Shown here in pieces: positions 1 to 11,173 of a stretch of 27,269 nucleotides of DNA; the first letter of the stretch is position 1; each line of letters starts with the position of its first letter. Position numbers and translations under genes: made by a program. Location: NCBI GenBank assembly GCA_030747675.1, contig JASLKH010000091.1, forward strand, positions 1-27,269, written 5' to 3'. Below the pieces are notes generated by a model that worked only from the letters and a program-made list of their open reading frames with translations, had not been told where the DNA came from and ran no database searches. Source of the DNA: Candidatus Thalassarchaeaceae archaeon. GTDB taxonomy: Archaea; Thermoplasmatota; Poseidoniia; Poseidoniales; Thalassarchaeaceae.

Positions 1-1
1 A

Positions 2-955
2 GGAAACAGTGATTCATGGCATGTCGAAAGAATAATCGAAGGTGATTATGAAATTGATACAAAGTATCACGGTGAAGTCCCCCAGATTATTGAAAAACAA
101 CGCACTGGATGGTATTTACTACCACATCCAATTCATGCAAAGGCTAGAAATTTCATTAACATCGCAGTAATGATATTATTGACCTGTCTATTCTACTTGT
201 TCACAACTCCATTACAAACCTCAATTGGAATTCCTACCTTTGGTACCGGTAAAATTCGACTTGGACTTCTCGATTACCCTCTGCTAGCTGTTGTTGTTGT
301 TCCACTTATGCTGATTCCAATAGCACTCAGAATCGCAGCAAATCTAGGGGATTTAAGAAGGCAGAAATTTTTCTTGTTCAATTCGCCGCCTAGGCCTGAA
401 ATCAGTGTCGATGAAGTTGAAAGCGGTTCAAATCTGAAAGGGAAAATTGAGTTTCAGGAACCCTGTAATGATTGGAAGAGCATGAAATTATCATGGAGAG
501 TTGGCATTCTGCCACCGGCTAGACACAAAGTTTTCGCAGCATTAAATCTCGACCCATCAGGACAACCACCTCCCGGTTTAACGACTCCATTACCACATCA
601 CTGGGAAAAAGGACTGGATGACGGGACCGGTATGGGAGAGGATGCGCCTATGGAGAGGCATGATGTCCCAGGTGGTGTATTTTTGCGACCTATGCGAATC
701 ATGAGCACTAGTGAACCCGTACCACTAGAGATTGCGGGTGATGAATTTGAGTTGTCACCACCACCAGGCGAGTGGCCAGGAACTGTATATGGAGGACTTG
801 TTCGAATACACTGGGAGTTGGTGATTAACATCGAAAGGGAAAGTGGTGGACCATTACTCTGGGTCGAGCCACTAACAGTTATTCACAGAAATAATGCAAT
901 AGTCAATCAGGATATTTCAATATCCGATGGTCGTACAGAAAGTGATGCATTGTAG
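2..955 (+). CDS. 5'-truncated hypothetical membrane protein: two TM helices followed by a possible arrestin/SpoOM-like beta-sandwich
   Basis: The frame of ORF 170..955 is open back to nt 2 (GNSDSWHVERIIEG...), so the gene starts upstream of the window. It has two hydrophobic segments (FINIAVMILLTCLFYLF; LLAVVVVPLMLIPIALRIAA) and a C-terminal 'PGEWPGTVYGGLVRIHWELVINIE' strand pattern. Confidence 0.75.
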   Translation, partial: GNSDSWHVERIIEGDYEIDTKYHGEVPQIIEKQRTGWYLLPHPIHAKARNFINIAVMILLTCLFYLFTTPLQTSIGIPTFGTGKIRLGLLDYPLLAVVVVPLMLIPIALRIAANLGDLRRQKFFLFNSPPRPEISVDEVESGSNLKGKIEFQEPCNDWKSMKLSWRVGILPPARHKVFAALNLDPSGQPPPGLTTPLPHHWEKGLDDGTGMGEDAPMERHDVPGGVFLRPMRIMSTSEPVPLEIAGDEFELSPPPGEWPGTVYGGLVRIHWELVINIERESGGPLLWVEPLTVIHRNNAIVNQDISISDGRTESDAL

Positions 956-993
956 ATGCAAGGATTCATTTGCCTACCCCTTTGTCACAGTTC

Positions 994-3984
994 ATGGAGC
1001 GCAAGGCACTCAGTGCTGTTTTCTTAACTCTCATCATGCTTCTATCCGGTTGTTTAGGTTCTGAAGAAACCGAGAAGGAAGTTATTGAAAGCGTTCCAGA
1101 ACACCAACTAGTTGCAAATTTTTCGCTAGTAACCAGCGGTATTTCTACCGTGGGAGATATATTTTTGGTAGATGGTTTGGCAGAAGTTAGCCCGATTGAT
1201 ACTGAATATTTCATCGAATACGACATTATTACCCCTAGTGGGATAAGACCTGTTGATGCCACATTTACAATAACCGATACTGGAATGAGATTAATCTTAA
1301 TGCCCGACGAACCAGGTCAATGGAAAATCATGGGTCGACTGATTGTTTCTGGACTTGATGATTCCATAAAGAGCGATGTTGAATTTGAAGTACTTCCTCC
1401 AAACGAGGGAGACACAATACTTTCAGTAGATTCAATCATTGAAATGGATTATTCAGCACCCCTCACAATTAGCGGCAAAGTAATCCATTCAAGTCCAACA
1501 TCTTGCATAGTTGCAGATGGTTCTAATTCTCAATCACCTAATGATGCCGGAGAATTCTATCTCGGACAAGGAGTTGTTGAAGAATCCTACAATGTTACAA
1601 TCACTGCAACATGTGGAATTTGGACAGAAAGTCAGGACTCAAGAATCGTACGGGTGATACTGTCTACAGGAAATGACATGGATGGTGATGGGATTCCAGA
1701 TGATTCCGATGCTTGTCCGAATGGGTTTGGCGAAGATGAAGGATGGAATCCTAACCAAGCTACTGATCGAGATGGAGACGGTTGCCATGATTTTGAAGAG
1801 GACATCGATGATGATAATGACATGATTCCAGATTTAGATGACCAATGTGATTCAGAAATCGGATGGGTTAGCACTGAAATTAATGACTATGATAGAGATG
1901 GTTGCGCTGATTCAAGTGAAGATTTAGATGATGATAATGACGGAATATACGACGAATTCGATTCATGTCCAACCGGCGAAATAGGTTGGGAGTCGAAACC
2001 ATACACTGATTGGGATGGAGACGGTTGCCGAGATTTGTCTGAAGATAATGATGATGACAATGACCAAATTAATGACAGTCTAGATGACTGTTGGAGAGGT
2101 TTGTCGAATTGGGTTAGCAACTCAGAATTCGATTATGATGGTGACGGATGCAACGATTTGGTTGAAGACGAAGATGATGATAATGATGGAGTCAATGATG
2201 TAAACCAAACTGGAGTTACCCTAGATGAATGCCCAAGAACTCCTCTAAATGCGCAGGATGTTGACGAGAGGGGTTGTGATGCTACTGAAAGAGATACAGA
2301 CAGTGATGGAGTCATGGATTCTGATGATGACTGCCCAGGCACACCAATGGGCAATGTGGTTAACTCCGTGGGCTGTGCTGACTTAGACGGAGATGGTGTG
2401 TTTTCAAATGTAGATAATTGCGAAAACACTCAATCAAAATGGACACCGGATTCCCAAGGATGTGCAGTCTACCAACTGCCTGTTGCATGGAAAGAAAATG
2501 GGCATGGAAATGGTAGAATGGATACTGTTGCTCATTTCTCAGTTCCAACATTGGATGGAACTTGGTCATTCAGAAATGAATGGAATGGAGAAGATGTCTA
2601 CATTTTCCTATTCAAGTACACTGATTCATCAGGAAATGGAAACAATGCAGACTGGTCAAAGAGCCCGGGCTCAATGATTCGTCAATTACCAGACAACGCT
2701 CATCTGTTCTACGGTTCATTCGACAATTCCTACCAAAGTGATGTACAAGGACGGAAAAATGCCGTTCAGAATGCACTCAATGCTGATGAGGAATTGAAAT
2801 GGCAAGATCGAATTCATTACATCGACCAAGATATGTCCACTGCTAGTGGCGGATTGGGTGATTTGATTAACAATTGGAATTCGCTTTACTATGGAATTGA
2901 TAGATTCCAGCGTGCACGTGAAATCGGTTCAATTTATGCTTGGACTTCGCAAACAAATGACATTACTCACTGGGCATATGAGGCTAGAATGTACAATTAT
3001 GAATATCCCACAGAAGTTAGAGAAAGTGACCCTAATGTGCACTCAGTTACTGTTGTTGATGAATTATGGCATAGCGGAGGATGGAGTGGAGGATATACTT
3101 CAACTTACGAAAACGTCAGTATCAGTTTACCCAATAATATCTCTTCATACGATACCCTAGAAGTATTCCATGAGCACGCATGTGAAGATAGAAGAAATCG
3201 ATATGCAAAGTCGGATGGTGGTTACGGAGGTTGCCATGAATGGGATTATCTAGCATACATGAAAATTTGCGACCGTGATAATGCTAGTAAGTGCGGTACA
3301 GAATTCATGCGATGGATTACAACTTACGGGAGAGAAGGTAGATGGTTAACCGATATTACTCCTTACCTTTTCATGCTAGAGGAAAACGATTCTCGAACAT
3401 TCAAGTATCAAGGTGCAAATAAGGGAACTATGACTGTCAAGTTACTATTCTCTGATTGGGACGTGGGTGAGCGAAGTAGTAGTGGTGAGCAAGCATTCAC
3501 TGGAGGCCAATTTAAGGGCGAATACAATAACGAGTCACAATACAAACGCCAGCACAACTTTACTGCACTTTCTGATTATCATAGCGTGAAGATTGTTTCA
3601 ACAATCACTGGACATGGCTTCAATCAAGACCAAGCAAATTGTGCTGAATTCTGCGACCACGAACATCACTATTATCTCAATGGAAATACCGCTTACGAAT
3701 GGCATCCAATCGTCTATGATAGCCAAGGATGTGAGAAGGAAGTTGACAGAGGAGTCGTAGCTAATCAATTTGGTTCTTGGCCATTCGGAAGAGCCGGCTG
3801 GTGTGCAGGACAAGATGTAAAACAATGGACATTTGACATAACAGACTGGATAGATAATTCATCTACAAATAATCTGCAATACAAGGGATTATTCAATGGT
3901 CAAGAGTATGTGCCTCAAGATACCAATGGTGGAAGCAGAGAAATCAGAGCCAACATATGGTTGGTGTGGTATGATCAGAACTGA
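994..3984 (+). CDS. Lipoprotein with Ig-like domains, thrombospondin type 3-like Ca-binding repeats, a redoxin-like linker and a C-terminal peptide-N-glycosidase F (PNGase F)-like domain
   Basis: ATG at 994 (track starts at TTG 970). Signal peptide MERKALSAVFLTLIMLLSG|C with lipobox Cys at 1051. DxDxDGC..D..ED.DDDND repeats. PNGase F motifs CHEWDY (3235-3249), ITGHG, CAEFC (3640-3654) and GRAGWCAG (R at 3790). Confidence 0.85.
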   Translation: MERKALSAVFLTLIMLLSGCLGSEETEKEVIESVPEHQLVANFSLVTSGISTVGDIFLVDGLAEVSPIDTEYFIEYDIITPSGIRPVDATFTITDTGMRLILMPDEPGQWKIMGRLIVSGLDDSIKSDVEFEVLPPNEGDTILSVDSIIEMDYSAPLTISGKVIHSSPTSCIVADGSNSQSPNDAGEFYLGQGVVEESYNVTITATCGIWTESQDSRIVRVILSTGNDMDGDGIPDDSDACPNGFGEDEGWNPNQATDRDGDGCHDFEEDIDDDNDMIPDLDDQCDSEIGWVSTEINDYDRDGCADSSEDLDDDNDGIYDEFDSCPTGEIGWESKPYTDWDGDGCRDLSEDNDDDNDQINDSLDDCWRGLSNWVSNSEFDYDGDGCNDLVEDEDDDNDGVNDVNQTGVTLDECPRTPLNAQDVDERGCDATERDTDSDGVMDSDDDCPGTPMGNVVNSVGCADLDGDGVFSNVDNCENTQSKWTPDSQGCAVYQLPVAWKENGHGNGRMDTVAHFSVPTLDGTWSFRNEWNGEDVYIFLFKYTDSSGNGNNADWSKSPGSMIRQLPDNAHLFYGSFDNSYQSDVQGRKNAVQNALNADEELKWQDRIHYIDQDMSTASGGLGDLINNWNSLYYGIDRFQRAREIGSIYAWTSQTNDITHWAYEARMYNYEYPTEVRESDPNVHSVTVVDELWHSGGWSGGYTSTYENVSISLPNNISSYDTLEVFHEHACEDRRNRYAKSDGGYGGCHEWDYLAYMKICDRDNASKCGTEFMRWITTYGREGRWLTDITPYLFMLEENDSRTFKYQGANKGTMTVKLLFSDWDVGERSSSGEQAFTGGQFKGEYNNESQYKRQHNFTALSDYHSVKIVSTITGHGFNQDQANCAEFCDHEHHYYLNGNTAYEWHPIVYDSQGCEKEVDRGVVANQFGSWPFGRAGWCAGQDVKQWTFDITDWIDNSSTNNLQYKGLFNGQEYVPQDTNGGSREIRANIWLVWYDQN
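1675..2420 (+). repeat. Intragenic TSP3-like Asp-rich Ca-binding repeats (four ~39-40 aa units plus shorter DxDGDG..D.CP units)
   Basis: Units DRDGDGCHDFEEDIDDDND, DYDRDGCADSSEDLDDDND, DWDGDGCRDLSEDNDDDND and DYDGDGCNDLVEDEDDDND, each followed by a spacer typically containing D.C and often a W.S motif. Confidence 0.9.
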
Positions 3985-5141
3985 GAGGGCGGAGGTGAAG
4001 CTAACTCGCTTAGTTTCGTTTTTGGAGAAGGAGTCTCAAGGTGTTCATAACGTGAATTTCTTCTTCTGGGAACAAAACCTGCTCTAACAATCGCGTCTTG
4101 CAATTCTAATTCACTCGCTTGGATTTTATTTGTTCCAGATGCAGATACGACATTCTCTTCCATCATTGTTGAGCCTGCATCATCAGCGCCACCTAAAAGT
4201 GCCATTTGTGCTATTGATAAGCCCATAGTAGGCCAGGAGGCTTGAATGTGGTCAATATTGTCAAAGAATAATCTTGAAACTGCTACGTGTCTAAGGTATT
4301 CGCTAGGACCTGCCCCTAGCTCGAATTTGTTCCTTCCACGATTTCTCTTACCATACGAGTTATTTTCTAACTGAACCGGCCATGCAATAAATGAGGTGAA
4401 TCCGTTAGAATAATCAGCAAGACTGCTGTCTTGTAATTCTCTTACCCTGCTCATATGCTCAATCCTGTTTTCAATGGTTTCTCCAAAACCAAAAACATTG
4501 GTAGCACTAGTGATTAGACCAAGTGATTGAGCTTCTTGCATAACTCTGAGCCAATTGTCTGGTGAACCTTTCTTTGGTGAAACATCATTTCTCACTGATT
4601 CAACTAACATCTCAGCACCACCTCCCGGTAGTCCGTGCATTCCAGCACCCTTCAGATGCGTTAGAACTTCTAGAGTTGAGAGATTTGCAACCTCTGCTAT
4701 TCCTTCGATTTCAATCGGTGAAAAGCAATCTAAATCGATGGTTGGATGCTTTTTTCGTAAAGATTTCAGTAAATCGGTATAGTAATCAATTCCTAAATCT
4801 GGATTAACTCCACCCTGCATTAGAATTCTAGTTCCATCAATGCCCTCTAACTCACTAACTCTCTGACTGATCTCGTCGAGTGTCTGTGTATACGTCTCTT
4901 CATGCCCGGGTGCCCGATAGAATGAACAAAATTGACAATTGATTGTACAGACGTTCGTGTAGTTGATGTTTCTATCAATAAGATAGGTGACATGCTTGTC
5001 ACCATTCATATCCACCCGCCTTTGATTAGCTGCATTACGAAGAGCATACAGAGGTGCATCTCTGTAGAGTACAACTGCATCTTCTTGACTCAATCTTGAC
5101 CTACTAGCCATGTGAGAATCAAGGATTTGACTCCAGGACAT
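3975..5141 (-). CDS. mqnC: Cyclic dehypoxanthine futalosine synthase (radical SAM, CofH/MqnC family)
   Basis: NINYTNVCTINCQFCSFYR (CxxxCxxC), MQGGVNP, PGGGAEML, SFIAW, HIQASWPTMG and GADDAGSTMMEENVV; the last three are MqnC-type rather than CofH-type. Confidence 0.85.
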   Translation of the reverse strand: MSWSQILDSHMASRSRLSQEDAVVLYRDAPLYALRNAANQRRVDMNGDKHVTYLIDRNINYTNVCTINCQFCSFYRAPGHEETYTQTLDEISQRVSELEGIDGTRILMQGGVNPDLGIDYYTDLLKSLRKKHPTIDLDCFSPIEIEGIAEVANLSTLEVLTHLKGAGMHGLPGGGAEMLVESVRNDVSPKKGSPDNWLRVMQEAQSLGLITSATNVFGFGETIENRIEHMSRVRELQDSSLADYSNGFTSFIAWPVQLENNSYGKRNRGRNKFELGAGPSEYLRHVAVSRLFFDNIDHIQASWPTMGLSIAQMALLGGADDAGSTMMEENVVSASGTNKIQASELELQDAIVRAGFVPRRRNSRYEHLETPSPKTKLSELASPPPSQF

Positions 5142-5150
5142 ACTAACAAC

Positions 5151-6554
5151 TCATGCTGAACCTACTATTGATTCAATATTAGCGATTGTTTTCGGGCAAT
5201 CCCCTGACAACACATCCGGACCATCTTTGGTAACTAATACATCGTCTTCTATTCGAATTCCAATATTTGCATATCTTTCTGGACATTCTACGTCTGGTCT
5301 CCATGCTCCGAAATACAATCCCGGCTCAACAGTGATTACCATCCCTTCTTCGAACAAGCGTGGTTCATCATCAGGGCGATAAATTCCAACGTCGTGAACA
5401 TCGATACCTAGCCAATGCCCTGTGTTGTGCATGTACCATTTATTCAAGTCGCCATCAGAAGACAGGGCTACGTCAAGTGATTGGTCAATAATTCCCAAAT
5501 TGATTAGACCCTCTGCCAAAACACGCCTTGCAGCCTTGTGAGGAGCGTCATAAGAATTGCCTACACGACATTCGTCGATTGCTGCAATTTGAGCATCGAG
5601 TACAATCTGGTAAATTTCTGCTTGAGCATCACTAAACTTGCCATTTACCGGCCACGAGCGAGTAATATCAGAAGCATATCCTTTGTACTCGCAACCTGCA
5701 TCGATTAGAATCACTTCACCATCATCACAAGTATCATCATTCACAGTGTAGTGAAGGATAGTTGCATTCTCTCCACTGCCAATAATACATGGGTAGGCTA
5801 TTCCAGAGGTTTTGCAATATTTGAACAATCCTTCGATAATGCCCTCTAGTTGCCATTCGCCTACACCTGGCTTTGTGTTTGCCATTGCTTGAATATGAGC
5901 TTGTGCTGCTATCTTTGCTGAATGACGCATCAAATCTATTTCTGCATTCGACTTACGAAGCCTTAATTCGTTAATCATCATTGAAGGGTCCACAATACTA
6001 ATCGGTCCGAGGCCAAATTTCTGACGTTCTCTTGAATTAGATTTCATTTCGCTTTCGACTAAATTGTCAACATCGGAATCAACTCCCATTTTGACAAAAA
6101 TACGTGAAGACTTGACTAGCATAGACGAAAGAATGTCTTGAAGTGACTCATGAGACTCTGCATTATCTACTGGCCAATTTGCTTCAGCACCTTCAACGCC
6201 TGGTCTTCGACCTTCCCATATCTCCTTCAGAACATCCTTAGGTTGCACGAATAGAGTTGTTTTCCACTCGCCATCATCATTGGAGGCACAGAAAACTGCG
6301 TCTGGATCTTCCCAGCCACACAAATACAACATATCGCTACTAGTACGGAATGGATAGTGAACATCATTTGAACGAATAGACTCATGCGGGGCAGTGATTA
6401 TTAGTAAATCACTAGGGCGTAACTGAGAGAACAATCGTGACTGACGTGAGCGATATTCATCGTGGCTAATACCCGCAGGTTCTTGCCCGACTGCTCGAAG
6501 AGATTCCTCCCACATGTATATGCGGTATATGGACTGATTTTTCATTCCTTTCAT
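5151..6554 (-). CDS. pepP: Xaa-Pro aminopeptidase (aminopeptidase P, M24B) with N-terminal AMP_N domain
   Basis: Metal ligands in IDAG, YASDITR, HNTGHWLGIDVHD, TVEPGLY and GIRIEDD; N-terminal 'YPFRTSSDMLYLCG'. Start uncertain: ATG 6554 (2 nt after the upstream stop) or ATG 6515. The track start 6581 overlaps the upstream gene. Confidence 0.93.
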   Translation of the reverse strand: MKGMKNQSIYRIYMWEESLRAVGQEPAGISHDEYRSRQSRLFSQLRPSDLLIITAPHESIRSNDVHYPFRTSSDMLYLCGWEDPDAVFCASNDDGEWKTTLFVQPKDVLKEIWEGRRPGVEGAEANWPVDNAESHESLQDILSSMLVKSSRIFVKMGVDSDVDNLVESEMKSNSRERQKFGLGPISIVDPSMMINELRLRKSNAEIDLMRHSAKIAAQAHIQAMANTKPGVGEWQLEGIIEGLFKYCKTSGIAYPCIIGSGENATILHYTVNDDTCDDGEVILIDAGCEYKGYASDITRSWPVNGKFSDAQAEIYQIVLDAQIAAIDECRVGNSYDAPHKAARRVLAEGLINLGIIDQSLDVALSSDGDLNKWYMHNTGHWLGIDVHDVGIYRPDDEPRLFEEGMVITVEPGLYFGAWRPDVECPERYANIGIRIEDDVLVTKDGPDVLSGDCPKTIANIESIVGSA

Positions 6555-6556
6555 GA

Positions 6557-8074
6557 TTAGGAGGATTCTTCGCCTGTCCACATATCATTCTCTGACATCG
6601 ATTCACGTTCTGAATCCGCAATATTTGTACTCGGCTTTGAATCCCATTTTGGCAAAACTGAGACCTCGTTTTCAGTCATCCTCATTCGACGGAACATCAT
6701 TATGCTGAAGGCAATTATCCCAAGCAACATTAGAACGGCTGTAATATTGAATTCGCCTGAATCTGATTTTGGTTCAGCCTTGACACTAATCTGAATCTCA
6801 TGCGTATCCTGTGCGCCGTCATCATCAACTACGACTAATCGCAAATCATATTCCCCAACCTCCAAATCCTTGAGAGTCAGATTTAGTGAGGTTGAGATTA
6901 GTTCTTCATCCAAGTACCAGGAGTAGGTTAGAGAATTTCCATCTTCACCTGTTTCAATTGTGGTAGCAACAAGTTCCAGTGCATCATTTTGCAAAAATTG
7001 CCACGAAGTTGGATTCGTCACACTACTCCCTTCCATTTGCAAGTCAATTACAGGTGCCACATTAGTGACATAAATTGTAGTGTTAGAGGAAGACATACGG
7101 CCAACCCAATCAATAACGTCCAACCTCACTGTATAATTTCCAGATTTACTCAATGCAATGTTGAGTAGTTCATCCGTAGTGTTTGAAGTAGGAACATATG
7201 TTACTCCTTCTGGGTCGGTTACATACCAAATTGATTGTAGATTATTGCTCCATACTCCGTCTGTAGAGCCGCTACCGTCAATGACAATCATTTCTCCTTC
7301 AAGAGCGGTTTGTGGGCTTATTAGAACCGAATTAGGGTCTGTCTGATCAACGAAAACCACCAATTCAATTTCAGGAGATGTTCTAAGATATACATCTTGC
7401 AAATGGTATGTGAATTTCCAAACCCCATCATCGAGTTCCAAAGCTTCTGCGTCTATTGAAAATGTGCCAATGTCGTTTTCCCAACTAACATTGACTTCAG
7501 TATCGAAGGTAGTACCATCACATGCACCATTAGGGGCGAGACACCAACTCAGAATTAATTTTGAATCAACAGCCTGAGAATCTGCCAATATCGCTCGTGA
7601 TGACATAACATACTCGCCATCAACAATGATATTTGTTTCATGGTTAGGAGAAATAACTGGATTATGTGGGCCTTCACCAATGAAAACAATACGATTTAGG
7701 AATTCTTTACCCAAACCATCGGTTTGACTAACTTCAAGCCAGCATGTACAATTTTCGCCTTCGACATTAATCGAGATTGACCAAATCCAAAGCCCTTCAT
7801 CGACCGGGGTAACTGATGTAAAATATTCTCCACTTGCAACAATTGGCCATTCAGTATATGGATTAGTCACATCATACAATACCCAATCTGCGTTCTGTGG
7901 TGGCAAAGTGGTTGAACCATTGATTTCTAATGTATCATTTATCCAAATTCCATCACCAAGCGGACTAGTCAATTTCTGACCTACATCAGTAGTGGCAGAT
8001 GTTGTGTCAGTTATTGAAATAGACATCAATAACAACGAAGTCACGAAAAGAACTGACTTCGGATATTGATTCAT
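6557..8074 (-). CDS. Secreted, C-terminally membrane-anchored protein with PKD/Ig-like domains
   Basis: N-terminal signal peptide (MNQYPKSVLFVTSLLLMSISIT). PKD-like motifs VIDGSGSTD...SIWYV...GNYTVRLDVIDWVG and YSWYLD...GEYDLRLVVVDDDGA. C-terminal TM (AVLMLLGIIAFSIMMFRR) and a short acidic tail. Confidence 0.8.
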   Translation of the reverse strand: MNQYPKSVLFVTSLLLMSISITDTTSATTDVGQKLTSPLGDGIWINDTLEINGSTTLPPQNADWVLYDVTNPYTEWPIVASGEYFTSVTPVDEGLWIWSISINVEGENCTCWLEVSQTDGLGKEFLNRIVFIGEGPHNPVISPNHETNIIVDGEYVMSSRAILADSQAVDSKLILSWCLAPNGACDGTTFDTEVNVSWENDIGTFSIDAEALELDDGVWKFTYHLQDVYLRTSPEIELVVFVDQTDPNSVLISPQTALEGEMIVIDGSGSTDGVWSNNLQSIWYVTDPEGVTYVPTSNTTDELLNIALSKSGNYTVRLDVIDWVGRMSSSNTTIYVTNVAPVIDLQMEGSSVTNPTSWQFLQNDALELVATTIETGEDGNSLTYSWYLDEELISTSLNLTLKDLEVGEYDLRLVVVDDDGAQDTHEIQISVKAEPKSDSGEFNITAVLMLLGIIAFSIMMFRRMRMTENEVSVLPKWDSKPSTNIADSERESMSENDMWTGEESS

Positions 8075-8077
8075 CTA

Positions 8078-11000
8078 CTACTCCTCAAACGGATTACACA
8101 ACTGTCCTTGGCCAGGGAAACTGTTGATGTCACGTGGGTTCGTATCCCACTTGTACTCACAGTAATTTACGTGGCCGTCACCGTCAGTATCCACCATTCT
8201 GTCTGCATCATCGAATGGGTCGAAATTGAAGTAATACTCCCAACCAGTAGCCATACCATCATCATCGTGATCTTGGTAATACACTTCAGGCCCATCGTCC
8301 CATTCATCGCCATCAGTATCGTTGCGAATTGGATTAGTACCATTGACGAATTCTTCGAAACTGGTGTAGTTTTCTAGGTTATCATAGAACATCTTACCAT
8401 CGGGAGTATCCGGGTCGATGTGACAGTTGCTAGATTGTGGGTCTTCATAGGAAGGGCAGTACTTGGCAATTAGACCTGTACGGTTCAAACCATCATTGTC
8501 TGGGTCTTCCATACCATCATCAATTCCGTCTCCATCTGAATCTTTCAATGCAGGATCCATAACACCACGAGCACCATAGGCGCTGTAGGTTGAATTGTCA
8601 ACTAAGCCTATGATTAGTGCTTGCTCAGAGTACTTTACTTCCCAACCATCAGGCAGCATATCTCCATCGGTATCATCATCGACAGGGTTAGTATTCCAAC
8701 GGTCTGGAGCTTCAGCACTGTTAGCCAATGTATCATTGTCAATGTCATATGTGTCATCTTTCAGTGATGCCTCGGAAGGGTCCAATGCCCATCTTCCATA
8801 ACATCCGTTGCAGAGAGGATTTGCCGGTACGGCGAAGTTTGTTAGATTCATTTCATACACTTCGTACTTCTTCTCTAATATGAATCCACCAAGCCAGTTC
8901 TTCCAAATGTACCCACCTTCATCTAGGCCACACTCAATCATTGAGTCACAGCCAGGAGGTAGCCAAAGATCTGTAGCAACCCAAAGTGAATGTGACTTGG
9001 AATTGTCCTCGATTGATTCCACTTGCATTTCCCATCCATCAAGCATTCCATCTGAATCTGAATCATTGATTAGTGGGTTGGTTGGATTTTGATATGGCCT
9101 AGGAACGAATAGAACCTCATATCCATCGATCAAACCATCATCATCAGTGTCAGAGTCGTTTGCATTAGTTAGGAAGTTGTCCTGACCTAGGATAACCTCT
9201 TCACCATCTTCTAATCCATCATTGTCTGTGTCATACATACAAGGGCTTGTGAAATACTCCTCTCCATACCAAGAGAAACCGTTCAGTGCTTCTGCTTGGT
9301 CTCCTAGTCCATCACCATCAGTATCTGCATTGGATGCATTGGAGCCTGTACCACACACATCGTTGAATTCTTTGAAATCAGAAAGACCATCTTCATCTGT
9401 ATCCCACAGACCTGGGTCTGAAGTAACATGAGTATTCTGAACTCCACGGTTAACAACCAGTATTTCCCAACCAATGACTTCAATTCCATCCTTCAATCCA
9501 TCACCGTCGGTGTCTGGATTCAGCGGATCGGTTGAGCGCCCATCAATGATGCCATCGCCATCTGAATCTCGGGCATTGTATTCCATCAAATTAGTGAACA
9601 TTTCATCCAATTCAACAATCTCTACCCACACATCCAAACGACTCTCGATAGTATCACCAACTTCGACATTGATTGAGTAAACATAACCATCAACTGGAGC
9701 AACTAAAGGTATGACTTGTTGATTTCCACCAGATAGAGTAATTCTAGCCCTTGCAACTGTTTGATTAGCACTAACCCAATCATCGAGTTCAACATCAATA
9801 GCAACTACTAGAGCCACATTTTCAAGTTGGTCAAATGTGACTGAACCATCTCCATCGGCATCATATCCGTCTCTGTCTGAATCAATGTCACCATTTGAAC
9901 CATCACGTGGATCTAATCCGTTGGTTGCTTCCCAGCCATCTGGCATGCCATCCTCATCAGTATCTTCATGCCAAGGGGATGTGAACTTGTCCTCTCCAAA
10001 TAATAGCGCAACTTGGTATTCTTCGATGTTATTCATTCCATCTTCATCCCAGTCGCCATATCCATCGGAATTGTTAGCAGGGTCGAGAGTTTGTGACGCT
10101 GCAGTAGCTCCTGAGCCTGGATGTTCCAATACATTGGAGAAACAGAACTCGTAGCCATCTGGCATGCCATCACCATCAGTATCCCAATCAGAAGGACCGT
10201 TTAGGCGACCATCGCCATCCATGTCTTCCTTGAACCATGCAAGTCCATGCTCCAGAGCATCTGATGCGAATGGTGCTTGTCGGTTGACAGGGTCAAGCAA
10301 ATCTAGTCCACAATTTTGCCCAGTTGCCATCATTACCCAAATGGTTGAGTTTGATATTTCGTGGATGTCATTCAGCATGTCTCCATCTGAATCCGGCTTG
10401 GTAGGGTCGGTTCCATATTCTTCTTCTTCAAGGTTGAACAATTCATCATTGTCCGAGTCTAGAACTTGGTCACAGGAATGTTCACCTGCTGCATTTGCTA
10501 AGTCATCCCAGTTTGCAACACCGTTTTCTCCATTGAAGTGGTCCTCCAGAGTTTCCTCCATTGCATCGGTCAACTCAACACAATCCCAGTTTCCTGAAAG
10601 AGGGTCAAAAAGTGTGTAATTGCCAGCAGGGTGGTTAACTACACGCTTGTAGGTAACTTCCCACTTGTCGTTTAGACCATCGCCATCTGTATCTGCTAGT
10701 CGGGGATTGGTACCTTCCTCAACTTCAACCGAATTTATCAGGCCATCACGATCTGGATCTCCCTTAGGACCATCATCTGGGTCAGGCCAGGAATCTTCCT
10801 CTTCCTGCTCTTCAGCGCCTTCAGAACTTGCCTCACTAGGATCATTCTCTGCATCGTCGGATTCACCATTGTCAAGCGGATTAAGTCCATTTTCGACTTC
10901 CCAGCCATCTTCCATGCCATCTCCGTCGGTATCCGGGTTGCCTGGATCTGTACCGTATTGTAACTCTACTGCGTCTACAAGACCATCGCCATCATTGTCC

Positions 11001-11173
11001 ATAGATTGGCCAGAATTGGAACCCTCACCTATCAAATCATCCTCGGCTGCAGGGTCAAAATCACCGGCGCCTTCACTGGTTTGGAAGAAGCCTGATGCTC
11101 CAACGAATAATGATCCGAAAATCAATGTTGATACAATTGCAACGTAAGCCATCTGATTATGTGACATTGTCAT
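8078..11173 (-). CDS. Giant acidic Ca-binding repeat surface protein (bacterial TSP3-like DTDGDG repeats) with an internal biotinyl/lipoyl-like domain
   Basis: N-terminal hydrophobic anchor (AYVAIVSTLIFGSLFVGA); roughly 25 DxDxDG.xDxxE / GTDP-TNP motifs; paired Cys in inserts; internal 'DVELDDWVSANQTVAR...LVAPVDGYVYSINVEVGDTI' segment. Confidence 0.85.
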   Translation of the reverse strand: MTMSHNQMAYVAIVSTLIFGSLFVGASGFFQTSEGAGDFDPAAEDDLIGEGSNSGQSMDNDGDGLVDAVELQYGTDPGNPDTDGDGMEDGWEVENGLNPLDNGESDDAENDPSEASSEGAEEQEEEDSWPDPDDGPKGDPDRDGLINSVEVEEGTNPRLADTDGDGLNDKWEVTYKRVVNHPAGNYTLFDPLSGNWDCVELTDAMEETLEDHFNGENGVANWDDLANAAGEHSCDQVLDSDNDELFNLEEEEYGTDPTKPDSDGDMLNDIHEISNSTIWVMMATGQNCGLDLLDPVNRQAPFASDALEHGLAWFKEDMDGDGRLNGPSDWDTDGDGMPDGYEFCFSNVLEHPGSGATAASQTLDPANNSDGYGDWDEDGMNNIEEYQVALLFGEDKFTSPWHEDTDEDGMPDGWEATNGLDPRDGSNGDIDSDRDGYDADGDGSVTFDQLENVALVVAIDVELDDWVSANQTVARARITLSGGNQQVIPLVAPVDGYVYSINVEVGDTIESRLDVWVEIVELDEMFTNLMEYNARDSDGDGIIDGRSTDPLNPDTDGDGLKDGIEVIGWEILVVNRGVQNTHVTSDPGLWDTDEDGLSDFKEFNDVCGTGSNASNADTDGDGLGDQAEALNGFSWYGEEYFTSPCMYDTDNDGLEDGEEVILGQDNFLTNANDSDTDDDGLIDGYEVLFVPRPYQNPTNPLINDSDSDGMLDGWEMQVESIEDNSKSHSLWVATDLWLPPGCDSMIECGLDEGGYIWKNWLGGFILEKKYEVYEMNLTNFAVPANPLCNGCYGRWALDPSEASLKDDTYDIDNDTLANSAEAPDRWNTNPVDDDTDGDMLPDGWEVKYSEQALIIGLVDNSTYSAYGARGVMDPALKDSDGDGIDDGMEDPDNDGLNRTGLIAKYCPSYEDPQSSNCHIDPDTPDGKMFYDNLENYTSFEEFVNGTNPIRNDTDGDEWDDGPEVYYQDHDDDGMATGWEYYFNFDPFDDADRMVDTDGDGHVNYCEYKWDTNPRDINSFPGQGQLCNPFEE
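8110..11000 (-). repeat. Intragenic DTDGDG(L/M)xDGxE...(G)T(D/N)P Ca-binding repeat array
   Basis: Examples: DTDGDGMEDGWE, DTDGDGLNDKWE, DTDGDGMPDGYE, DTDEDGMPDGWE, DTDGDGLKDGIE, DTDNDGLEDGEE, DTDGDMLPDGWE. The repeats are degenerate at DNA level. Confidence 0.9.

Follow-up and report, generated by a model that had tools for sequence, protein, structure and literature searches.

A stalked, lipobox-bearing member of the PNGase F family in Marine Group II archaea, with zebrafish Ngly2 as closest characterised relative

Results

Gene and domain layout of the locus

The window (the whole 27,269-nucleotide stretch of DNA analysed, contig JASLKH010000091.1 of a Candidatus Thalassarchaeaceae archaeon) opens with two genes on the + strand. 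The second of these, the subject of this report, is an open reading frame that ends at position 3984 (TGA stop, 3982–3984) and could begin at either 970 (TTG) or 994 (ATG). The ATG is the start in all 17 aligned homologues, which sets the gene at 994..3984 and its product at 996 aa. In the translation, a signal peptide with a lipobox, two Ig-like domains, a stalk of thrombospondin-3 (TSP3) type, a domain resembling thioredoxin (Tx-like domain) and a PNGase domain follow one another. Position 2 to position 955 is occupied by the 3′ part of a conserved gene that ends 38 nt ahead of the ATG of the PNGase gene; its homologue in relative L007 is complete, with 359 aa and predicted membrane helices. 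The two genes adjoin in nine of ten loci, and the gene order around the PNGase gene is kept across two families. The upstream product has no match in Pfam, NCBIfam or PDB and belongs to no known family, its clusters in the Atlas stem from Thermoplasmatota only, and the gene is a possible operon partner of the PNGase gene.

The N-terminus (signal peptide, 994..1053) consists of MERK, a hydrophobic stretch and the tetrapeptide L17-S-G-C20 (1042–1053), which fits the lipobox consensus of a signal peptide ending in [L/V/I][A/S/T/V/I][G/A/S]C as given in PMC12462473. All 18 of the aligned sequences share G19 and C20, and in an alignment of 61 rows conservation of both residues is at least 90%, so that the lipobox proposed in an earlier reading of the sequence alone (hereafter, the sequence-only reading) holds. 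Lipid anchoring of Cys20, as predicted from this motif, is uncertain given that the archaeal lipidation enzyme family arCOG02177 is reported in the same source to have gaps in Thermoplasmata.

The Ig-like domains span aa ~40–134 (1111..1395; strands at residues 20–114 of model m7d54221c0fe8) and aa ~142–223 (1417..1662), the latter with invariant C171 and C207 in the homologue alignment. The model, which covers aa 21–229 with a pLDDT of 93.4, shows two beta-sandwiches, and Foldseek places pairs of tandem Ig domains, titin Z1Z2 and NCAM Ig1-2 among them, at the head of its matches (E ~1e-7, prob 1.00), bearing out the two Ig-like segments recognised earlier. They are followed by the Asp/Cys-rich stalk (aa ~226–490; 1669..2463), which is ~265 aa long, with 24% Asp and 14 Cys. 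Nine DxDxDG and four DDDxD motifs, two of them overlapping and all counted over aa 216–500, make up 11 Asp-rich loops, whose Asp, Gly and Cys columns do not vary among the homologues. The assignment to the TSP3 type, likewise made from the sequence alone, agrees with these tandem loops and cysteines and with a partial match to the NCBIfam thrombospondin-3-type model throspo3_MtsC, although the Pfam TSP_3 score (19.9 bits) lies below the 25-bit cut-off. By its sequence, the stalk probably binds calcium.

The remainder of the protein comprises the Tx-like domain of ~180 aa with its linker helix (aa ~502–678; 2497..3027) and the PNGase double jelly-roll domain (aa ~680–996; 3031..3981). The latter contains the motifs CHEWDY (aa 747–752, from nt 3232), ITGHG (aa 871–875, from nt 3604), CAEFC (aa 883–887, from nt 3640) and RAGWC (aa 933–937, from nt 3790), all at the codons named previously. 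The sequence-only reading was right about these motifs and the family of the C-terminal ~300 aa, but it overlooked the Tx-like domain: because this domain follows the stalk and precedes the PNGase domain, the conserved C-terminal unit measures ~500 aa rather than ~300. Consequently, the expression construct proposed in that reading (nt ~3040–3981) would truncate the catalytic unit by removing its Tx-like domain.

A putative catalytic unit with the predicted fold of PNGase F and the layout of Ngly2

Pfam N-glycanase_C (PF09113) matches aa 844–981 far above chance (E 2.1e-19, 70.1 bits against a 25-bit cut-off), whereas N-glycanase_N, the other profile suggested as a check, has no match at E<=1 in the 996-aa protein; the N-terminal jelly roll is thus predicted from the fold and from profile alignment. 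With phmmer, the protein aligns with zebrafish Ngly2 (PDB 9lwg) at E 4.2e-38 and has no PNGase F match at E<=1. A 69-row family profile finds Ngly2 at E 7.8e-107 and PNGase F (1pnf, 1pgs, 3pms) at ~1e-27, the alignment extending over PNGase F residues 8–305 and hence over both jelly rolls.

These sequence relationships are mirrored in the AlphaFold model of the ~500-aa C-terminal unit (pLDDT 94.7, pTM 0.91). Foldseek matches it to 9lwg with E 9e-37 (TMq 0.81) and to 1pnf with TMt 0.76. In VIA, model residues 12–504 superpose on Ngly2 51–662 with Z 39.0 and rmsd 2.3 Å over 456 aligned residues (26% identity). Superposition on PNGase F, which had been put forward as a check on the sequence-only reading, recovers the double jelly-roll with Z 26.4–27.0 over 278–282 aligned residues from model residue 188/191 to 506; the best of these matches (Z 27.0, rmsd 2.7 Å, 279 aligned) places model residues 190–506 on PNGase F 4–305. 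By sequence and predicted fold, the protein belongs to the PNGase F family and would be expected to have amidase activity, and its closest characterised relative in sequence is not PNGase F itself but Ngly2, the zebrafish acid PNGase.

The Tx-like region (model residues 12–188, with the linker helix at 169–187) has VIA matches to peroxiredoxin and thioredoxin folds (Z 8–9.4). It also aligns with the N-terminal part of Ngly2 in VIA, and the profile match over Ngly2 chain index 68–202 has an E of 2.4e-8. There is no Cys anywhere in aa 491–700, and the domain is redox-dead. The same combination of a Tx-like domain without CxxC, a linker helix and a double jelly-roll is found in Ngly2 (J Biol Chem 2025, PMC12753239), as are the motifs W-D, G-H-G, C-x-E-F-C and R-x-G-W-C. 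However, the Tx-like domain of Ngly2 is interrupted by a PA (protease-associated) domain that lies beside the active site, and the archaeal protein lacks such an insert: it has no Pfam PA match, and the family profile matches it in one contiguous stretch. Furthermore, Ngly2 is a soluble lysosomal enzyme, whereas the archaeal protein, with its lipobox, Ig-like domains and TSP3 stalk, is predicted to face seawater.

Elizabethkingia PNGase F shares the double jelly-roll and has neither the Tx-like domain nor the stalk nor the lipobox. More distant still are PNGase F-II and other solved bacterial PNGases (4r4x/4r4z, 7zgn, 9vla, 3ks7, 4qhb), which have the catalytic double jelly-roll in common with the archaeal protein (VIA Z 13.4–21.9; Foldseek E 1e-10 to 1e-14) but only 11–18% identity, other N-terminal accessory domains and no Tx-like domain.

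Active-site residues and the sugar site

Profile alignment to 1pgs and 3pms and phmmer alignment to 9lwg equate W750-D751-Y752 with W59-D60-R61 of PNGase F and W420-D421-H422 of Ngly2. The catalytic Asp corresponds to D751 (codon 3244..3246) and the catalytic Glu to E885 (codon 3646..3648), the two codons at which mutations had been proposed. E885-F886 aligns with E206-W207 of PNGase F and with E555-F of Ngly2, H874 with PNGase F W191 and Ngly2 H546, and R933 and W936 with PNGase F R248 and W251. All four PNGase F residues that had been claimed to have equivalents here (D60, E206, R248 and W251) are therefore conserved in the profile-to-PDB alignment, and the Phe in place of W207 is seen as well. 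From the alignment of these residues and the common fold, they would be expected to converge in a single cleft.

Neither D751 nor E885 varies in any of the 18 archaeal sequences. Among 150 representatives of roughly 25–60% identity, the Asp is kept in 141, the Glu in 145, H874 in 147, R933 in 146 and W936 in 147, while the position of Y752 is held by Tyr in 86, Arg in 37 and His in 3. Alanine mutants at active-site residues of Ngly2 lose activity, and its H422 and H546 have been proposed as the cause of its acid pH optimum (PMC12753239); of these two histidines, the archaeal protein keeps the latter as H874 and has Y752 in place of the former.

PNGase F residues W59, R61 and W191 are named in the Ngly2 paper as chitobiose contacts (PMC12753239). 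W59 is kept as W750, and R61 and W191 are replaced by Y752 and H874, respectively. E118 and W120, which we take to be further chitobiose-contacting positions of the sugar site, correspond to Q806 in the profile alignment and to a segment missing from the family profile, respectively. In these alignments, the Elizabethkingia-type sugar site (W59, R61, W191, E118, W120) is not preserved as a set, so that specificity for the chitobiose core is not simply transferable from PNGase F.

Relatives and taxonomic distribution

Of the 74 genomes in Poseidoniales family f3, 66 carry the gene, which makes it near-universal there, whereas its occurrence in the other family is patchy (21 of 74). Outside these two families, the search of the phylum recovered it from a single sister family. 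Archaeal origin, assumed in the sequence-only reading, agrees with the labels of the best 80 loci, 78 of which are assigned to Poseidoniales or other archaea. Beyond the archaea, uncharacterised proteins of ~530–620 aa align end to end with the 497-aa module of Tx-like and PNGase domains at ~28–39% identity, and the module is contiguous in 93 of the 150 representatives; three relatives (P0128, P0152 and P0184) carry a PA domain (PF02225 match). Those of the ~530–620-aa proteins that are labelled are bacterial: one from the uncultured bacterium HF130_AEPn_1, one from Myxococcales, a T9SS-tailed protein and an Acidobacteriota protein with TSP3 repeats. Most consist of a leader and the module, whereas the archaeal proteins carry ~470 additional N-terminal residues, namely the Ig-like domains and the TSP3 stalk. 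The archaeal proteins form their own clade in the tree (SH-aLRT 100), the nearest relatives of which include EGF-domain proteins that look eukaryotic.

In public records, relatives are named ‘putative N-glycosidase F’ or (NCBI) ‘peptide-N-glycosidase F-related’. Novelty is limited accordingly, annotation pipelines having already given the correct family name; the protein is, on solid grounds, an uncharacterised member of a known family. We found no paper on a characterised archaeal enzyme of the PNGase F family, in line with the sequence-only reading, nor any characterisation of the ~530–620-aa relatives in the literature.

Discussion

We consider it probable, if by no means certain, that the protein is an outward-facing peptide:N-glycanase with which a Marine Group II archaeon strips N-glycans from exogenous, probably eukaryotic glycoproteins, so that peptidases reach the polypeptide. 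Following export through its Sec signal peptide, the protein would be tethered to the membrane at Cys20, and the two Ig-like domains together with the ~265-aa, presumably calcium-loaded and disulfide-rich TSP3 stalk would keep the ~500-aa catalytic unit off the cell. In this unit, which has the predicted layout of Ngly2 minus the PA insert (redox-dead Tx-like domain, linker helix, double jelly-roll), D751 and E885, helped by W750, H874, R933 and W936, would hydrolyse the Asn-GlcNAc amide, releasing the whole N-glycan and converting Asn to Asp. Removal of N-glycans from phytoplankton-derived glycoproteins and glycopeptides would open the polypeptide to the peptidases of the cell, the prize being protein rather than sugar. 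A proteolytic lifestyle is common to all genera according to Rinke et al. That 66 of 74 f3 genomes keep the gene, with neighbouring genes in an order shared by two families, speaks for selection on it.

The same activity might instead be directed at the archaeon itself, trimming or recycling the N-glycans of its S-layer or surface glycoproteins in remodelling, turnover or phage-receptor shedding. AglB/STT3 is present in five of five Poseidoniaceae genomes, making the cell's own glycoproteins possible substrates, the enzyme is predicted from its lipobox to be tethered to the producing cell, and the protein itself has 11 N-X-S/T sequons within its 996 aa. We nevertheless regard this as unlikely: many archaea are not known to use the GlcNAc-Asn linkage, and the long stalk would place the active site away from the membrane. 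Moreover, the ~500-aa module also occurs in relatives labelled as bacterial (uncultured bacterium, Myxococcales, Acidobacteriota, type IX secretion substrate), a distribution with which, to judge from these labels, outside substrates would fit better.

If N-glycans are removed from exogenous proteins, they could also be imported and catabolised as sugars. PNGases release glycans intact, and sugar degradation varies among the genera according to Rinke et al. However, searches of five Poseidoniaceae genomes (87–97% complete) for six glycoside hydrolase families, GH20, GH92, GH38 (GH38N), GH18, GH3 and GH29, yielded none of them in any genome, while control genomes gave matches in every search. 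For these six families and five genomes, the result favours deglycosylation that unmasks protein, renders glycan harvesting quite improbable and counts against the sugar-scavenging half of the idea advanced in the sequence-only reading.

Ig-like domains and TSP3 repeats are typical of adhesins, and Rinke et al. file the thrombospondin genes of Poseidoniales under adhesion; the PNGase-like domain could accordingly be a non-catalytic lectin that merely binds glycans in adhesion to particles or cells, as the ‘thrombospondin adhesion genes’ of the literature would imply. Yet the catalytic Asp and Glu are retained in 141 and 145 of the 150 distant relatives, respectively, and are invariant in the archaeal family, a retention that a module serving binding alone would not be expected to show. 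Nor, across the genera of family f1, does the PNGase gene follow the archaellum: three genera have both, three the PNGase gene only, two archaellin only and five neither. A purely adhesive role is, in our view, very improbable. Least probable of all is an amidase of the same fold acting on a glycosyl-amide or other amide outside canonical protein N-glycans: the sugar site is unlike that of PNGase F (His, Tyr and Gln for W191, R61 and E118, and no W120 equivalent), but Ngly2, a demonstrated PNGase that tolerates a broad range of glycans (PMC12753239), has the same His and Phe substitutions, and the VIA match to it reaches Z 39.

Turning back to the unmasking of exogenous glycoproteins, a wider scenario can be offered, albeit as a speculation that we ourselves doubt. 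The class that holds Marine Groups II and III may have gained an Ngly2-type PNGase in a single interdomain transfer and then raised it on a calcium stalk at the cell surface, where it would unmask the glycoproteins of phytoplankton. Archaeal de-N-glycosylation could then be a near-core step, overlooked so far, by which marine high-molecular-weight dissolved organic nitrogen is turned over, and such enzymes could account for part of the ‘thrombospondin adhesion genes’ of earlier surveys.

The module is compact and its model very confident, which makes expression and assay straightforward, and a seawater-adapted PNGase could serve as a glycomics reagent. If shown to be active, it would bring the PNGase F family its first archaeal enzyme, and the distribution in ‘aquatic organisms’ noted for Ngly2 would reach a third domain of life. 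Much extracellular eukaryotic protein is N-glycosylated, and the glycans shield proteins from proteases. According to Rinke et al., no planktonic archaea in the surface ocean are more abundant than Marine Group II, which is uncultured and presumed to feed on proteins and peptides; a near-core N-glycanase displayed on the cell surface would offer these cells a specific route into glycosylated protein.

Predicted lipoprotein architecture and surface stalk

The gene lies in a forward-strand open frame that extends from 970 (TTG) or 994 (ATG) to 3984 in the list of open frames for the window. Translation from the ATG at 994 yields a protein of 996 aa, and the equivalent methionine is the start in all 17 aligned homologues; the TGA stop codon (3982-3984) falls within a 10-nt overlap with the 3′ end of a convergent gene. 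The lipobox proposed in the sequence-only reading is borne out: the N-terminus consists of MERK, a hydrophobic run and L17-S-G-C20, which matches the lipobox consensus as excerpted from PMC12462473. All 18 of 18 family members share Gly19 and Cys20, and conservation of both residues in a 61-row alignment is at least 90%. The two Ig-like segments are equally apparent in an AlphaFold model of aa 21-229 (61 sequences; mean pLDDT 93.4), which shows two β-sandwiches; the best Foldseek matches to this pair are tandem Ig domains, such as titin Z1Z2 and NCAM Ig1-2 (E ~1e-7, prob 1.00). The region that follows (aa ~226-490) is 24% Asp, has 14 Cys and contains nine DxDxDG and four DDDxD motifs, two of them overlapping, with motif columns invariant across homologues. 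Its earlier description as a thrombospondin type 3 (TSP3) stalk thus stands by motif, and NCBIfam returns a partial match to a thrombospondin-3-type model, but the Pfam TSP_3 match is under the curated cut-off (19.9 vs 25 bits). The stalk is predicted to bind calcium.

A thioredoxin-like and PNGase module related to Ngly2

The C-terminal enzyme had been delimited as a unit of ~300 aa. The conserved unit is instead ~500 aa long: homologues span 98-100% of aa 500-996, and many proteins of ~530-620 aa align end to end with the whole 497 aa at roughly 28-39% identity. We modeled aa 491-996 from an alignment with 68 relatives (a 69-row profile), obtaining pLDDT of 94.7 and pTM of 0.91. The first-ranked Foldseek match of the module is the zebrafish lysosomal PNGase Ngly2 (PDB 9lwg; E 9e-37, TMq 0.81), followed by PNGase F (1pnf, TMt 0.76) and then PNGF-II and other PNGases, with peptidylglycine monooxygenase and viral double-jelly-roll capsids ranking below these PNGases. 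In VIA-align, 456 residues were aligned with 9lwg (Z 39.0, rmsd 2.3 Å, 26% identity), model residues 12-504 corresponding to Ngly2 residues 51-662. Superposition also recovered the predicted PNGase F fold, with Z-scores of 26.4-27.0 and 278-282 aligned residues for four PNGase F entries; this match covers model residues 188/191-506. The preceding part (residues 12-188) matches peroxiredoxin and thioredoxin folds (Z 8-9.4), hereinafter the Tx-like domain. The lack of any cysteine in aa 491-700 rules out a redox function for this domain; the eight cysteines of the module are found at aa 730, 747, 759, 767, 883, 887, 913 and 937.

In Ngly2, a CxxC-less Tx-like domain, interrupted by an inserted PA domain, is joined to the PNGase domain through a linker helix (PMC12753239). 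The archaeal protein shares this layout except for the PA domain, for which Pfam gives no match, and the family profile matches the protein in one contiguous stretch. Among the 150 best representatives of the family, the module is contiguous in 93, whereas in 39 an insert of 47-797 aa occupies the place of the Ngly2 PA domain; a further 15 consist of the PNGase part only, several being fragments, and three are fragments. Ngly2 dimerises via its Tx-like domain; homodimer prediction for aa 500-996, based on the 69-row alignment, scored 0.00 against a mark of 0.42 and speaks neither for nor against an archaeal dimer.

Catalytic and sugar-site residues

At the sequence level, phmmer with the single sequence retrieved Ngly2 (E 4.2e-38) and did not find PNGase F at E ≤ 1. 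In Pfam, the proposed family assignment was supported for N-glycanase_C (70.1 bits), but N-glycanase_N gave no match, and no NCBIfam model names the C-terminal module. The 69-row family profile matched Ngly2 at E 7.8e-107, with its Tx-like domain included (E 2.4e-8), and PNGase F at ~1e-27 over residues 8-305, that is, both jelly rolls. The four motifs reported previously are present, namely CHEWDY (aa 747), ITGHG (aa 871), CAEFC (aa 883) and RAGWC (aa 933), and the codons of D751 and E885 are at nt 3244 and nt 3646, where they had been placed. Counting along the printed phmmer and profile alignments, we matched W750-D751-Y752 with W59-D60-R61 of PNGase F and W420-D421-H422 of Ngly2, H874 with W191 and H546, and E885-F886 with E206-W207 and E555-F, respectively, whereas R933 and W936 correspond to R248 and W251 of PNGase F. 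Accordingly, the equivalents of D60, E206, R248 and W251 are conserved, with W207 replaced by Phe, as initially suggested. Asp60 and Glu206 form the PNGase F active site, and activity of Ngly2 is lost in alanine mutants of the catalytic Asp421 and Glu555 (both per PMC12753239).

Across the 150 representatives, the column of the catalytic Asp holds Asp in 141 (five gaps, three Pro and one Asn) and that of the Glu holds Glu in 145; His874 (147), Arg933 (146), Trp936 (147) and Trp750 (139) are similarly retained, and at position 752 there are 86 Tyr and 37 Arg. The sugar site differs from that of PNGase F, with W191 replaced by His and R61 by Tyr. Furthermore, of E118 and W120, which we take to be sugar-site residues of PNGase F, the former is replaced by Gln and the latter is absent. 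Given these differences, PNGase F specificity is not simply transferable to the archaeal protein.

Genomic neighborhood and a second copy

The PNGase gene is preceded by an upstream gene on the same strand and faces, in order, convergent genes for an MqnC/CofH-like radical SAM protein, an M24 Xaa-Pro aminopeptidase, a PKD-domain protein and a 1031-aa TSP3 protein. This order recurs in both f3, the Poseidoniales family in which the PNGase is nearly universal, and f1, in which it is patchy; of ten loci inspected, nine have the upstream gene, nine MqnC, nine M24, eight PKD and seven TSP3, and the f2 locus has none of these neighbors. The upstream gene, whose 3′ part occupies window positions 2-955 (+), is the sole same-strand neighbor and ends 38 nt before the PNGase ATG. 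Its full-length version (L007:11281-12360, minus strand) encodes 359 aa with predicted membrane helices. Pfam, NCBIfam and PDB sequence searches returned nothing for it, look-alikes are confined to Thermoplasmatota, and an arrestin-like Atlas lead scored 0.76, below the trustworthy level. It is possible that its product is a functional partner of the PNGase. A look-up of RNA sequencing runs for window positions 1-5200 listed none.

The 1031-aa protein (8078-11173, minus strand) consists almost wholly of bacterial-type TSP3 repeats and has a hydrophobic N-terminal anchor without a lipobox. It partially matches the model of the myxobacterial gliding lipoprotein CglD (118.9 bits, far under the 400-bit cut-off) and is 56-93% identical in seven of the ten syntenic loci. 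Together with the PNGase gene, it probably underlies the ‘thrombospondin’ genes tallied in genome surveys. The 505-aa PKD-domain protein (6557-8074, minus strand) probably sits at the surface as a type I protein, since its translation shows a signal peptide as well as a hydrophobic C-terminal segment with basic residues after it. Its divergence is rapid, with 66% identity within the genus but 24-28% outside it.

The window contig (C91 of bin G000) appears to be mis-binned. Its PNGase module shares 85-91% identity with that of genus g17 of f3, its SHMT is 90-92% identical to those of g17 genomes, and its gene neighborhood is shared with a g17 contig (G100:C17), whereas the bin, classed as f1/g1, has its own g1-type SHMT on C50 (78%) and PNGase on C4 (48%). 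The latter copy (L016; G000:C4:3885-6911, minus strand) is full-length (1009 aa, ~40% identity overall), keeps all four catalytic motifs, has a variant lipobox, GSGC, and is the orthologue present in other g1 genomes; MqnC and M24 genes flank it as well.

Distribution and phylogeny

The nearest proteins carry the name ‘peptide-N-glycosidase F-related protein [Candidatus Poseidoniaceae archaeon]’, and a fosmid record dating from around 2014 has the title ‘putative N-glycosidase F [uncultured marine group II/III euryarchaeote]’. Among species-representative genomes, the best 80 of 559 related loci are all of the Poseidoniales type, 78 bearing Poseidoniales or other archaeal labels. Copies in MAGs of a Rhodobiaceae bacterium (L062) and a Verrucomicrobiales bacterium (L084) show 60-63% identity to the window module, as Poseidoniales copies do, and most likely represent archaeal contigs binned into bacterial MAGs. 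Within the order sample, the module was found in 90 of 151 genomes (f3, 66/74; f1, 21/74; f2, 2/2) and in 36 of the 58 that are at least 90% complete. In the phylum sample, matches at E ≤ 1e-10 occur in 49 of 301 genomes; besides G000, these belong to f1 (8/21), f3 (37/42) and a family of the same class, f4 (3/8), with no match at this threshold in the 229 genomes of other families. Genome G003, a single contig, has an open frame of only 560 aa around the module (L009; C1:1319799-1321310, plus strand), and tblastn matched aa 445-994 only; the N-terminal half there is either interrupted or highly divergent. Two f4 genomes (G344:C3 and G349:C36) give two separate matches to the module, the distal one containing a stop codon.

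A quick IQ-TREE phylogeny (LG+G4, SH-aLRT support only, unrooted) was built from 109 rows: 87 contiguous-module representatives, 14 of the 38 insert-type ones, seven MGII homologues and the window protein. The 14 archaeal-type rows form one clade (SH-aLRT 100), although this group is partly defined by query similarity and archaeal names are attached only to the P0123 and P0126 clusters and some MGII rows. Its tree neighbors include EGF-domain proteins: the nearest non-archaeal representatives P0129, P0132, P0133 and P0238 have EGF domains of the teneurin type ahead of the PNGase module, and another neighbor, P0137, sits on a 5.0-Mb contig. These neighbors may be eukaryotic; the tree supports no claim on the direction of transfer.

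Novelty and biological role

The family assignment is one already made by annotation pipelines. Our search of openly accessible main-text literature found nothing linking Marine Group II, Poseidoniales or Thermoplasmatota with PNGase or N-glycosidase, and for the Pfam accessions only the Ngly2 paper, which in its excerpted parts mentions bacterial but not archaeal orthologues (PMC12753239). New here are the recognition of the Ngly2-type Tx-like and PNGase module in an archaeal protein, its near-core status in one Marine Group II family and its mounting on a lipobox, Ig domains and a TSP3 stalk.

AglB/STT3 is present in five of five Poseidoniaceae genomes (87-97% complete), indicating that these cells have N-glycoproteins of their own. 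In four of them, the STT3/AglB domain (G100:C34:10429-11619, minus; G066:C16:268448-269638, minus; G044:C2:311144-312322, plus; G012:C2:292114-292839, minus) lies within a stop-free frame of ~3186-3189 aa (1603 aa in G003), which suggests a giant AglB-containing protein. The glycoside hydrolase families GH20, GH92, GH38N, GH18, GH3 and GH29 were not detected in any of the same five genomes, whereas control genomes matched each time. Rinke et al. described a proteolytic lifestyle in all genera and placed ‘thrombospondin genes’ under adhesion. A simple link to an adhesion module (archaellum or particle adhesion) was dropped, since the PNGase does not track archaellin across f1 genera (both in three, PNGase only in three, archaellin only in two, neither in five). 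Genome size tracks presence better, carriers having 1.6-2.2 Mb and non-carriers 1.3-1.6 Mb (rounded sizes). The six hydrolase families undetected in these five genomes and the proteolytic lifestyle lead us to favor a role in which the enzyme would deglycosylate outside glycoproteins and thereby expose their polypeptide, which appears likelier than remodeling of the cell's own glycoproteins, sugar harvesting or mere adhesion.
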